DNA from: Anolis carolinensis
Taxonomy: Eukaryota
Length of the DNA stretch: 64,000 nucleotides
Assembly (NCBI RefSeq): GCF_035594765.1
Contig: NC_085841.1
Coordinates: forward strand, 39,787,636 to 39,851,635
Reading direction: 5' to 3'
Shown here piece by piece: positions 423 through 63,208 of the stretch. The position numbers were made by a program, and so were the translations under genes. The notes beneath the pieces were generated by a model. That model did no database searches. It saw only the letters and a list, made by a program, of their open reading frames with translations, and was not told the origin of the DNA. Positions within the stretch are counted from its first letter, which is position 1; each line of letters starts with the position of its first letter.

Positions 423-1493
423 TGTTATGGTTGAGCCTTATGGCTCCGATACTGGGAGACGTGGTCGTAAGACTCCTCGGGAGTCAGATACTCTCGAGGA
501 GCGAGAAAGGAAGCGGCTGCGGGACTTATTTGCAGAACCATCTGACGAGGATTCCTTTGAGGGTTTTACTGAGAGAATGGAGGAAGAGATGGTTAGCTCA
601 GAGGAGGATGACATGGAATGGACTCGTGTGAGGGAGGATTTGGGTGCCACTGGCAATGATAGTATGGAAGGCGATTGGGGACCTTCAGGATTAGACCCGT
701 GGACAAGCTGGAGGGATGGGACGGGATCCACAGCTGGGGATGCTGTGGGGCGTAGTCAAAGGTGTTTCAGTTCTGATGAGGAAAGTGATGAGGAAACGCC
801 TGGAATTGGGGTAACAGCTGATAGTGATGAGGAGCTGTAAACTGGCATAAAATGGGGTTTGGAAGCAATGGCTAATTGCGTTGGGCAAGGTAATCTGGAC
901 GAACGCTTGGGCTCTGTGTGGGAAATTCCTGAAGACGGGTGTGATTCGTTTGCTGACTACCTTGGACCTCCGTCGTCTTCTTGACGGACGCCATCTGTTT
1001 ATTCTGGACTGACTGACTGACTGACTGACTACGGCCTCGGACTCTCCTTCCTGTGATTATCGTTGGACCTGGTGAACTACAAACGTCTGTACCTGCCTTA
1101 CGACCTTCGGACGGATTGGAACTTCGCTGACCGCTTCTGCCCTTGAATGCTGCGTTTGTATCTGGAAATTGCTTGCTGTGTGGAGGAGTAACCTCTTAGT
1201 TACTCAAACATAGCTTTTGGCAGCAGAGAAGCATCTGCTGCCAGTTTTTTGTATTCCTTTGAACCTTTTGTTCACCAGCTTTTGTTTGTTTTAGTCCCAG
1301 GCTGAAGTAAGCTTTTTTGGTTTAACCCGAATTAAACTCCGGTTTAATCCGGTTTATCTTTTGAACGTTTTCCTTGTGTCTTTTTACTTTTAAGGCCAAT
1401 GTTTGCCTAGCCCTTGTCTTTTACGGGCATTTTTGGTTCTGTAACTCCAATAAACTTTGTTATATCTTATCTTGTGGCGTTCTGTCCTTGACA
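423..1493 (+). mobile_element. Solo LTR, Gypsy-like (family A), 1071 bp
   Basis: Termini TGTTA...TGACA. Exact 5-bp TSD GTCCA (418-422 and 1494-1498). TATA-like CATAAAA at about 846, AATAAA at 1449-1454, internal (GACT)n. Confidence 0.9.
427..840 (+). CDS. LTR(U3)-encoded acidic 137-aa ORF (putative Pol/integrase C-terminal tail)
   Basis: Open from LTR position +2. Homologous along its length to the ORF in the LTR at 13877-14818. Contains RRGRKTPRE and SDEDSFEGF. Confidence 0.6.
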   Translation: MVEPYGSDTGRRGRKTPRESDTLEERERKRLRDLFAEPSDEDSFEGFTERMEEEMVSSEEDDMEWTRVREDLGATGNDSMEGDWGPSGLDPWTSWRDGTGSTAGDAVGRSQRCFSSDEESDEETPGIGVTADSDEEL

Positions 1494-1659
1494 GTCCAGG
1501 TTGGGTTGTTCAACATAACCAATTATTTAAGTCATCTTGACATGTCTTCTATGTCATATCTGATTTAATACTTACACTAGAAAATTTTATCATCTGACTT
1601 GTAAAGTTTAATAATGAATATCAGGCCCTCTAAAATATTACTAAGAGCAATCCAAAAAT

Positions 1660-2875
1660 AACTTCTGCAACCCCACCAGCATTCAAAGTTGACCATGTTG
1701 GGTATGTGTGCCAAGTTTGGTCAAGATCCATCTTTGGTTGGGTTCACAGTGCTCTCTGGATGTCAGAAGCCTCAACCTCAAATACTAGCGGAGTGTTAAT
1801 CCACAGTCCAAGGTCAAACCAATAGTCCAACAGAGGTGCAAACATTAACAGGATAACACACTACAGAAGCAGAATGTCTATTCCAGGGTCATAAGACAAA
1901 TATCAAAATGTCCAGAGTACAAGGTTGAATCAGAATCCATAGCCGAGGTCCAAGGTAAGTCCAGGGTTCAGGAAACACAAGACAGCAAGAGTCCAAAGTC
2001 ATAGCTTCTATAACTGCTATTGCAGCCAGCAACAAGGTGCTAGGCTTGAGTTCCTTAAATCCTAAGTCCATAGGTATTACCTGTTACTGACTCTCTTTTC
2101 AGCTGGTGTCAAGGACCTGTGCAGCAGGTCCTTGACACTTTCTTAGCAGACCCACAAAAGCTGGAACACTTAACTCTTCCTCAGCCTGCTCTAAGGAACT
2201 AACTTGCACTTGTACTACGGGCTGAATAGTAGTAGCTCCTTCCATGGGTGCTTCTTCAAAGCTTAGCTGAGAGAGCTGCTGGACACTGCTGTGCTCCAGC
2301 TTGACCATTGAGCCTTTCACCAGTATCTCCTCATCTATGCTTACCAAGTTGTCTATGACAATGGATGTGAGCTAACTATAATTCCCAACAAGGGCAATTC
2401 CCTCCAAACTCAGCAAGTACCTAAATTAGGTCATGATGGGTATGTGTGCTAAGTCTGTCCCAGATCCATGGTTGGTTGGGTTCAGAATTGTTCTCTGGTT
2501 CTCTGGATCTAGGTGAACTATAATTCTTAATATCCAATTTCCTCCAAAGCCTGCCAGAACTTAAAAGTTGGTCATGTTGAGTATGGATGCCAAGTTTGGT
2601 CTAGATCCATCATTGGTTGGGCTCACAGTCCTCTATGGGTGTGGGTGAACTACAACTTCCAACATGGTGGGTCAATTCCCTCCAAACTCCTCCATTATTT
2701 TCTGTTGGTCATGGGAGGGGTTTGTGTGCCAGGTTTGGCGTAGATCGGTCGTCAGTGGGAGTCATAGTTTTTTCTGGAAATGGGGACCATCTTCGAAACC
2801 GCCCACCAACATACATACCCACAAACACAAATACATACAAACATATATTCACTTTTATTGTACAGATAGATATAT
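1660..2875 (-). mobile_element. Degenerate non-autonomous Helitron-like repeat with internal ~120-bp CCAAGTTTGGTC units (split by the LTR)
   Basis: Repeated ccaagtttggtc..gatccat units like those at 23590-23945. The minus strand begins TCTATCTGTACAATAAAAGTGAA, resembling a Helitron 5' end. Confidence 0.5.
1761..2360 (-). mobile_element. Solo LTR, 600 bp, inserted in a Helitron-type repeat
   Basis: Termini TGTCA...TGACA. TSD CTGGA/ATGGA (1 mismatch). It interrupts a repeat unit ctctctgga^tgtg. Minus-strand frame is open from LTR +2 (2359) to 2099. Confidence 0.75.
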
Positions 2876-60900: not shown

Positions 60901-62359
60901 TAAAACCAAAGAAAAACTGAAAGTGATATCCAACATTTATGTATAGTACGTCTTTGGGAAAGCATTTTAGAGTGTCACAACAAAAACACCTTATATACGT
61001 AGGCACCTTAAAGTCCAGTACATTCTTTACATAATAGGTTTTTTTCGGAGCCAAATCTAAGCCTCCTAAGAAGTAGACTCTAGCCATGAAATAGTCCTAT
61101 AATTTTGTTCTGTTAAAATTGCCTAAATTGGCCCTGCAGGATATCCAGGATGTGTATATCAGTTATTATGTGTTAGAAATTTTTCTCAACAGGCAGAGGC
61201 AGATGCTGCAAAAGTGTGATGGGAAATATTTACATGAGTTGGCAGGTAACAGCTGACTTTCATGTTTATAACTATGAAACAAAGTCTATAACTCTTACAT
61301 ACAGTGGCATCATGAGCCTACATAAATACCTACAAATGTAGCAACAGATGTAATGAGAAATGAGTTAGCTTCTGAAACTGATAATCCATCTAGAATTGCC
61401 ATAAGTTGCCAATGACTTGAAAGTAAACAAAGCAACAACAGCATTATAGTGTTGTTGTATCTGCAGAATTTCTGATTTATGTACCAAAACTACTAGTTAA
61501 TCTTGAGCATCATCCACTTGGACCTGACAATTGGCACTATTTCCTGTTCTACCTCAAGCAGCAAATATAGGCTTTAAAAGGAAGCTCAAAATGTGTTTTA
61601 CAGCATTGTTGGGGAAGAAACCATGTCAGGATAACATTTCTTTCTTTAGCACATTTGTTTCCCAACCCAGAAAAGCCATGATACCTGAAACAAATCAAGG
61701 GAACTCAGTGCTTTTTGTAGTTGTTTATAATTATAATGAAAACGACTTTTATGGAAAGTAACATTTTAAAGTATAGAACAGGAATTTATGGTTTTTCATT
61801 CCATTAATGTTAATTAAACCAGGGCTTTCTCTCACATTGTTGTAAATTCATTGAACAAAGTGCATCATTTATAGTAAGTTTTGTAGGTATTCTTTCTTAC
61901 AAGTGATCTCTCTTATTTGAGAGCTGGAAATCTTGTCCCTCAAGAATTTTCAAGATGTGAGTTTTCTCTCAAGTCCATGACTCTGGAATGCCTTTAAAAT
62001 AGTCATTTTTCTCATAGTATGTATTATTCTGCTCATTTAGGAAGTGTCAGCTTCCCAAAAAAATCTGACCTATGGATTTTCTATTAATACATGATGAAAT
62101 GATGCAATAGCTATGGTAATTGTATGTGCATATCCATTTCTATTATTTTTTCTTCAACCAGCCTGAAGATGTCTGTTTCCTGGCATATCTTTTAGTTACC
62201 CAAACAGGACTACAAGATTTCTAGCCCACCAATCTAGATGCAGTAGACTGGGGCCAAACAATGGACACTCCCCTTCAAGGCAACCAGCAAAACCAGGAAT
62301 TCTCTCTCAGTCATATAGTTGTTTCCAACTCTTCGTGACCTCATGGACCAGTCCACGCC

Positions 62360-63208
62360 ATCTTTATTTTTATTAAAGCAAATAAAGTTCCAAAAGGAAA
62401 TAAGCAGCAAAGTTGAATAAGCAATTAACCTTCCAGGAAAGATCAAAATTAGTCCAATAAGTGAAAGTCTTATGTCCAGTATTAGAGTCCAAAGTCCAGA
62501 AACCGAAACACACTCAAACTCGGCCCGAGTATTGAGTGGGGAAAAAAGGATCAAAGAGGCAATAAGAGTTCTCTGGAGTAAATGTCCAAAAGCAGGATTT
62601 CAAAGCAAGGCAGGAACTAGATGAACAGGAGCTGAAACGCAGTCCAAACTTGGGCAAGGAGGTAGATCGGCGCCTGGTCTACTCAAGAGTAATGCACCTT
62701 CAGGCCGCTTGGATTCCAAGAGCTAGAGACGATGTTGCTTTCCAGTCAGAAGTAAAGTTGACACCGTGAAGGAAAGTTCTCAGCGCAATACTTTTATTGA
62801 AATTCATAAACTCCCCCAATCCAGGTGCCTGAATCCCTAAAATTTCCCAAGAGAACTGAGCTTGTCACAGTCACCGCGCCAGGTGTCTAACTCCCAAATT
62901 CTTCCCAAGAAAACAGGGTTTAGCCATAGTCTCCACGCTCCGCTAATCTGGCGCGTCTCCGCAAACTTTGTCTTTGCGATCTTTCTGTTTGCACAAATGC
63001 CCTACGATTAAACACTAAACCTTCCGGAGAATCTGGGAGAGCCGGCACAGTTTCAATGGCATCCTTAATTGGCCCTGGCTCGGAGATGTCAACATGAGGC
63101 ATCTGGAAAAGAGTTGAATCTTGCTGACATGGGAAAAAACCCAAGTCTTCTTCGTCCTGGACAGTAATGGCCACAGGGTCAGGGGCCAAAGGTGCCCTAG
63201 ACATAACA
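62360..63208 (-). mobile_element. Solo LTR, family B relative, 3' end lost or replaced by an RTE fragment (62310-62360)
   Basis: Minus strand starts TGTTATG at 63208. The 3' part resembles 7440-7590. U3 ORF 63204-62920. No second TSD found. Confidence 0.75.
62920..63204 (-). CDS. LTR(U3)-encoded 94-aa ORF, family B
   Basis: ATG at LTR +5. Aligns with ORF 7981-8244 (AI...DE...GF.P.QQ....F..P.VD; F.RR; RR..R.A). Confidence 0.55.
   Translation of the reverse strand: MSRAPLAPDPVAITVQDEEDLGFFPCQQDSTLFQMPHVDISEPGPIKDAIETVPALPDSPEGLVFNRRAFVQTERSQRQSLRRRARLAERGDYG

Follow-up and report, generated by a model that had tools for sequence, protein, structure and literature searches.

LTRs of Anolis Gypsy elements encode a protein-selected C-terminal pol tail with candidate chromatin-docking motifs

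Why would solo long terminal repeats (LTRs) in a lizard genome keep a long open reading frame (ORF) that begins at their second base? The question is raised by five LTRs in a 64,000-nt stretch of Anolis carolinensis DNA (NC_085841.1, 39,787,636-39,851,635; hereafter the window), whose copies we lettered A to E after the LTR families they represent; F denotes a further family found elsewhere in the genome. Their places, TGT starts and open +2 frames are as the initial annotation gave them, with 138 (A), 86 (B), 87 (C), 170 (D) and 95 (E) open codons, and wherever a TATA-like motif is seen the stop of the frame precedes it, again as had been described. Frames +1 and +3 reach their first stop at codons 0-9, save +3 of A (68) and of E (63), and among 2000 dinucleotide shuffles of each whole LTR, equally open frames numbered 0 for A, 1 for B, 21 for C, 0 for D and 19 for E. 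The length of the frame is a family trait: among the 30 best genomic copies per family, to which all counts out of 30 refer, 138 codons are kept in 25 of A and 87 in 25 of C, 168-171 in 21 of D and 95 in 21 of E. Comparing the tails as proteins, we found that A and D are 45% identical (E 4e-29) and C and E 31% (E 1e-12), where DNA gives short matches only. The LTRs had been taken for five independent cases; judged by these similarities the tails are three groups, A with D, C with E, and B alone. Family B is old (copies 75-81% identical); its window copy drops out of the family frame toward the end of the ORF, which makes the 86-codon end accidental. In the +2 frame of family B, stops fall on 27 of 1993 aligned codons; the two remaining frames have 137 of 1992 and 108 of 1981, a difference which, as the alignment reads, shows that this family too once had an open +2 frame.

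Analysis of two-LTR copies revealed where the frame comes from. In all six such copies of family A, pol runs in frame from integrase across the polypurine tract (PPT) into the +2 frame of the 3' LTR, with 447-1076 open codons upstream, and in three of the six it is a single pol of 1212-1214 codons whose last 138 residues lie within the LTR. Full-length copies of this kind were what the initial annotation had looked to for its integrase-tail proposal, and C and F supply them as well. The PPT-TG pattern occurs 1487 times in the genome, compared with 13 for the control. Of 100 matches listed, the 90 sampled, all on contig 1, comprised 78 junctions of A, 9 of C and 3 of an unrelated repeat; 76 of the 78 and 7 of the 9 are open for at least 100 codons upstream and at least 80 into the LTR, and subfamily A2 is the commonest (56/77 junctions). 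Family C has the same PPT, and its pol reads through after an intact chromodomain. Family F (L276-L292, e.g. L278 457-6666), whose pol is ~74% identical to that of A and ends in a ~140-residue LTR-coded tail, is in frame across the junction in 9 of the 12 copies examined.

To see how the tail evolves, we compared subfamilies. The ratio of nonsynonymous to synonymous substitution (dN/dS) between A subfamilies is 0.20, 0.25 and 0.24 in the +2 frame, compared with 0.29-0.34 in the mirror antisense frame, as expected, and 0.72-3.09 in the four unrelated frames; this comparison of all six frames is the one on which the initial annotation had staked its coding claim. The ORF part carries zero indels among A subfamilies versus 5-25 gaps over the next 410 nt, mismatches between A1 and A2 are concentrated at third positions (39 of 60), and between C and C2 the proportions of synonymous and nonsynonymous differences are 0.42 and 0.13. 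The tail is selected as protein, a conclusion we hold with near certainty. Since pol is continuous through the PPT and dN/dS is this low, the frame is the C-terminal tail of integrase and no separate gene; this assignment, seen in A, C and F and extended to B, D and E, is almost certainly right. The tail presumably remains on mature integrase. It had been left undecided whether an integrase tail or an accessory protein was encoded; the tail is supported and the accessory protein is not, as no separate ORF is needed. Lizard solo LTRs contain sequence selected as protein, a point of consequence for the annotation of repeats, for dates derived from LTR divergence and for spurious gene calls.

The elements belong to a known class. 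Families A, C and F have gag, a pol with protease, reverse transcriptase, RNase H and integrase (PR-RT-RH-IN), two LTRs, a target site duplication (TSD) and no env, as in Ty3/Gypsy (Metaviridae). In family A, Pfam recognizes gag with a zinc knuckle and PR-RT-RH-IN-SH3, and the closest database proteins to its pol are UniRef entries labelled Anolis carolinensis (95%, 85%) and Podarcis muralis. The sequence after the 5' LTR holds no tRNA site; its complement in A, C, D, E and F is a 10-11-nt stretch of the LTR itself, ~25-30 nt past the TATA-like motif, and for family B no such self-primer match was found. Self-priming of this layout characterizes the Tf1/Sushi group, according to PMC6317226. 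A primer-binding site (PBS) predicted from the D LTR marks 54 junctions versus 0 for the control, and these are shared between D and F: among the 17 fetched, one has a D LTR ahead of an A-like gag (65%), beyond which the copy is truncated, and 16 have an A-like pol, mostly of family F. The E-derived PBS pattern gave 3 matches versus 9 for the control, two of the three being an E LTR followed by a C-like gag. In the window copy of E the match to the family stops at LTR base 844 (~62365); the final ~60 nt of the family, the TAACA end and a TSD are missing, and the copy is thus not the whole solo LTR that it had been called.

Since both LTRs receive a copy of U3, the code for the tail survives in solo LTRs, upstream of the promoter and without pol. 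The inferred transcription start in A is LTR base ~456, past the stop at 418; as the ORF lies upstream of that start, the promoter of a solo LTR would not transcribe it, and the idea that every solo LTR spreads a coding cassette is not supported. Contigs from four presumed-RNA runs cover the element and have no GT-AG joint common to the runs; strand, start and level are not readable from such contigs.

Two features of the tails and their neighbourhood go beyond the initial annotation: loss of the chromodomain in A and F, and docking-like motifs. Family C has a chromodomain (PF00385, E 9e-9) with an F/W/F cage and is a chromovirus in the strict sense. In A and F, PF00385 was not found at E 0.05 or 0.01, so the strict definition does not cover them. 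In a tree of RT-RH-IN, A and F form one clade (100/100) within a group whose other sampled members mostly have a chromodomain; the sister link of this clade to P0003, a wall lizard protein with a chromodomain, is weak (81/75). As both families sit in the chromovirus tree, we infer secondary loss. A second clade, apart from A on the same tree, consists of P0010, P0304 and P0305 (all labelled Podarcis) together with P0167 and P0178; the cage residues Y and WKGY of P0003 are replaced in its chromodomain by H or N and by WEGE, so that two cage aromatics are lost. The apparent LTR-coded tails of P0010, P0167, P0178 and P0305 end in a common basic motif with LLCWKR.

The A tail is rich in acidic residues (29% D/E; 15-29% over the tails), and AlphaFold2 with a six-row alignment (mean pLDDT 56) predicts it to be disordered save for a helix at residues 24-37, which bears out the earlier idea of a long disordered tail apart from that helix. 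Two basic clusters, the helix, an acidic serine run and W-containing blocks are common to the A, D and F tails; the basic clusters we take to be a putative nuclear localization signal (NLS). In 30 of 30 copies of A the helix is followed by eight acidic or serine residues and then by FxGF. This order recalls the motif that interacts with a TFIIS N-terminal domain (TND), or TND-interacting motif (TIM), which is described in PMC9987994 as a helix, an acidic linker of 8-16 residues that is often CK2-phosphorylated, and an optional FxGF; FxGF is present, according to the same text, in all known partners of LEDGF/HRP2. The TIM sequence pattern (helix, acidic linker, FxGF, disorder) is found in A and in the P0010 clade. 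In the latter, one or two FxGF motifs of TIM type stand between chromodomain and PPT, and they persist in P0178, which is 55% identical to P0010. Screening 126 usable integrase C-termini (of 183 proteins), we found the pattern in 6, versus a mean of 0.21 and a maximum of 3 in 300 shuffles. The best match in the Protein Data Bank (PDB; 177,635 sequences) of a 28-residue A2 peptide is 6EMO, the complex of the LEDGF integrase-binding domain with JPO2 M1, aligned without gaps with 12 of 20 residues identical (E 0.037). None of the five tails belongs to a Pfam family, the PDB gave chance matches only for the whole A tail, and ESM Atlas gave no usable match. Among 1.84 billion representatives just two proteins matched the A tail, each of them a gene call made on a copy of this LTR family.

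LEDGF-family domains are themselves encoded by the genome, the lizard LEDGF domain being P0035 401-490. L253/L254 apparently hold the spliced LEDGF/PSIP1 gene, and L252 an HRP2-like exon. At L251:1474-2049 lies an intronless copy of the LEDGF/PSIP1 integrase-binding domain that is interrupted by a single in-frame stop and is likely a processed pseudogene.

The tails of C, E and B end differently. A motif of RRSxR[LI]A type stands at the tail end in 25 of 30 copies of C and 23 of 30 of E, and P0003 ends in an exact RRSARL, so that the HMGN-like pattern RRSxR[LI] is found in C, E and P0003. Family B has the looser S[LS]RL[ATG] in 16 of 30 copies; in the window copy it is out of frame and degraded. 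For the acidic-patch motif of HMGN, PMC13347269 gives the reference RRSARLSA and the functional variants RRSSRLTS and RRSARIAT. C and E also have a conserved acidic-xGF stretch (C tail residues 17-24 in 28/30, E tail residues 18-24 in 24/30), which we considered as a TIM and rejected, as it is without the first F and the helix.

We propose that integrase continues across the PPT into U3 of the 3' LTR, and that the selected, predicted-disordered tail in which it ends likely is a chromatin-docking module of short motifs. In the chromodomain-less clade the A, D and F tail would combine an NLS-like basic pair, a helix and an acidic linker; in A, FxGF would complete the motif, which would bind the TND (integrase-binding domain) of LEDGF/HRP2 and thereby tether integration to H3K36me-marked gene bodies. 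The FxGF motifs of the second clade would likewise dock on LEDGF/HRP2. In the C, E and B tails the HMGN-like arginine motif would grip the acidic patch of H2A-H2B, in C beside an intact chromodomain. We regard this explanation as a whole as probable, and from its sequence the tail can likewise be expected, with moderate confidence, to work in nuclear or chromatin docking. Binding of LEDGF/HRP2 by the A tail is a fair possibility that we would not yet bet on. Still more tentatively, lizard Gypsy elements may at least twice have swapped heterochromatin reading by a chromodomain for a linear mimic of JPO2/IWS1 docking on LEDGF/HRP2, in which case U3 would be a fast-evolving, swappable targeting cassette holding either a LEDGF motif or an HMGN-like anchor.

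A number of observations weigh against this proposal or parts of it. On the read-through, the 3' junctions of B, D and E were not recovered, and PPT-pattern searches for D and E gave none; L289, a copy of D, and L293 and L294, copies of E, end after gag or early pol, and for family B the internal region was not found. On selection, dN/dS of the tail (0.2) is far above that of the integrase core (0.03). On the need for a tail or a motif, another lizard family (P0009, P0011-P0014) ends 48 residues past GPY/F with neither chromodomain nor tail, and D is without FxGF in 30 of 30 copies. Family F, which is young (LTR pairs 97-99% identical), is without both chromodomain and FxGF; together with D, it indicates that FxGF is not needed for the clade to spread. 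The core common to A, D and F fits a TIM without FxGF and equally, as far as its sequence goes, an NLS with an acidic spacer. On the motif itself, A subfamilies are 82-92% identical, so that invariance of four residues means little; the single JPO2 match is of borderline significance and was looked for once the idea already existed, and four of five peptides, including the window A1 version, have no match to a LEDGF partner in the PDB. Three of the six pattern rows are circular, as the pattern was written after A and P0010 had been seen, and the motif of P0261 was dropped because the gene model is chimeric, which leaves two new rows among the six. Lastly, GC (0.37-0.41) and CpG of the flanks, a weak proxy for insertion preference, show no clear difference between families (27-30 copies per family).

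The tail could instead be a part of integrase that serves mainly nuclear import and solubility, through a bipartite NLS and an acidic phosphorylatable stretch, with the FxGF and RRSxRL matches incidental. What A, D and F share is in keeping with this, being basic clusters, acidic serine run and W blocks and not FxGF; acidic-linker patterns come cheaply in tails of such composition, and the four unmatched peptides point the same way. It is harder to reconcile with the recurrence of a correctly spaced FxGF in a separate clade, often twice and still present in P0178, with the coincidence of FxGF and a lost or cage-broken chromodomain, and with the shuffles, which keep composition and average 0.21 rows where six are found. 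We consider import and solubility as the main role unlikely, and docking the better account.

Alternatively, the U3 frame might also or mainly encode a separate accessory protein of the nef/sag kind, made from the ATG at +5 on spliced or read-through RNA, which solo LTRs could express. An ATG does stand at +5 in A, C, E and most copies of B, and a 137-aa protein starting there is among the database gene calls (P0154). As its sequence reads, this ATG is part of the LTR end motif: Sushi LTRs have the ends TGTYANR ... CNTNACA, which serve integrase recognition (PMC3601003, Table 3), and the lizard LTRs have them too, C (TGTGATG) and D (TGTTGTG) being one letter off. In D and F the codon is GTG and the frame is kept; moreover, the frame is continuous with pol, and both the TATA-like box and the self-primer site lie past the end of the ORF. 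An accessory protein is accordingly very improbable. That the open frame is a mere by-product of promoter composition or missing stops, without selected protein function, is hardly credible: short PPT read-through seems present elsewhere in the group (a protein-level guess, as 13 of 105 proteins have junction-like motifs, with tails in some cases no longer than 10-20 residues) and the tail evolves faster than the core, but the low dN/dS confined to the +2 frame and its mirror largely refutes it, as do the third-position excess, the absence of ORF indels and a protein similarity that outlasts that of the DNA.

Table 1. LTR copies in the window and their annotated parts.
Feature	Position	Strand	Remarks
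Family A (subfamily A1) solo LTR, Tf1/Sushi-type Gypsy	423..1493	+	exact 5-bp TSD GTCCA at 418-422 and 1494-1498
Last 138 pol/integrase residues and stop, U3-coded (A)	424..840	+	pol-continuous in 6/6 two-LTR copies; dN/dS 0.20-0.25
Two basic clusters RRGRK ... RKRLR, bipartite-NLS-like (A)	457..522	+	common to A, D and F
TIM-like segment (A)	493..567	+	helix predicted at 24-37, then acidic linker (8 residues, CK2-type serine), then FxGF at residues 45-48
TATA-like CATAAAA (A)	846-852	+	downstream of ORF
11-nt self-primer site complementary to PBS (A)	878-888	+	marks inferred U3/R border
Family B solo LTR, old	1761..2360	-	TSD matches in 4/5 letters; +2 frame 2359-2102
Family C solo LTR	7376..8245	-	exact 5-bp TSD CTTAC; self-primer site 7845-7836
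U3-coded pol tail, 87 residues (C)	7981..8244	-	comes after intact chromodomain in full-length copies
HMGN-like RRSLRIAA in C tail	8022-7999	-	25/30 family copies
Family D solo LTR, related to A and F	13877..14818	-	exact 5-bp TSD ATACT; self-primer site 14272-14262; lacks ~460 nt present in the family downstream of the ORF (internal deletion)
U3-coded 170-residue tail (D), homologous to A/F tails	14305..14817	-	helix and acidic linker, without FxGF; pol link inferred by homology
Family E LTR, 3'-truncated, related to C	62365..63208	-	self-primer site 62766-62758
U3-coded 95-residue tail (E), homologous to C tail	62920..63207	-	pol link inferred by homology
HMGN-like motif near E tail end	62961-62938	-	[RQ]RSxR[LI][AV] in 23/30 family copies

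Other features were met along the way. Window A1 is missing, at 959-960 (LTR base ~537), a segment of ~83 nt in the transcribed part of the LTR that is present in other A subfamilies (L172, L175, L162); the segment begins GTAAGT and ends in a branch-like CTTAAT/CTTATT ... TAG, and given these intron-like borders A1 resembles a precisely spliced form that itself transposed. Elsewhere in the genome (loci among L036, L292, L172-L174, L099 and L100), an A-family LTR is nested within an A element, an A LTR stands directly behind an F 3' LTR, tandem A elements lie 5205 nt apart, and C LTR pairs are arranged head-to-tail. The window further holds promoter-like, GC-rich islands at ~5200-5730 and ~33080-33800, a 755-nt inverted repeat pair (4080-4834 and 25614-26368, 96% complementary) that is likely made up of two young copies of a single mobile element, and a 276-codon frame (48659-49489, minus strand) that by eye resembles a fragment of LINE reverse transcriptase.

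How do these elements compare with known systems? The earlier comparison with plant CRM elements fits (PMC3059260): a pol extension into the 3' LTR, known from CRM group A, is found here in A, C and F. The lizard elements differ in clade and host, and C keeps both chromodomain and tail. The remaining hallmarks of group A, namely its CR motif, tRNA priming, centromeric location and the CRM clade itself, do not describe them, as they self-prime and their copies lie along chromosome arms, and nothing points to centromere targeting; the CR sequence itself was outside this comparison. The layout is that of CRM group A, and the motif content of the tails is the new part; in the open-access literature, as far as its text was accessible, we found no report of TND/LEDGF-type or HMGN-like motifs in Gypsy integrases, or of LTR-coded pol tails in lizards. 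With the Tf1/Sushi (V-clade) chromoviruses the lizard elements share the gag zinc knuckle, PR-RT-RH-IN-SH3(GPY/F), TGTYANR...CNTNACA ends, the 5-bp TSD and a self-priming PBS; they differ by an LTR-coded integrase extension of 87-170 residues and, in A and F, by the lack of a chromodomain. The acidic-patch motif of HMGN, Dsup and Dot5 has a putative counterpart in the RRSxR[LI] pattern close to where the C, E, B and P0003 tails end. For Ty1, a short targeting segment is described in the disordered C-terminus of integrase, tied to an NLS, much as is proposed for the lizard tails. Ty1 belongs to Copia and binds Pol III, and its targeting segment is not LTR-coded.

The A tail is like the TIMs of JPO2/CDCA7L, IWS1 and MLL1 in having a helix, an acidic linker with a CK2-type serine and FxGF in a disordered region; unlike these host motifs, it is a candidate binder, lies in a retrotransposon integrase and has sister families without FxGF. 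Insertion-site choice of vertebrate LTR retrotransposons is poorly known, and tethering by LEDGF is described for lentiviruses (PMC9987994). Three families young in one genome offer a natural experiment: A, with FxGF, no chromodomain and most of the ~1500 PPT junctions; F, with neither and about 50 junctions; and C, with a chromodomain and an HMGN-like motif. For A, the host domain and the predicted outcome, integration in active gene bodies, would be those of lentiviral integrase (same source). HIV integrase binds LEDGF by a pre-folded surface, as PMC10854676 has it, whereas the A tail would do so by mimicry of a linear motif. If the A tail binds LEDGF/HRP2, a non-lentiviral element has converged on the same host adaptor and uses the tether of HIV by a different mechanism.

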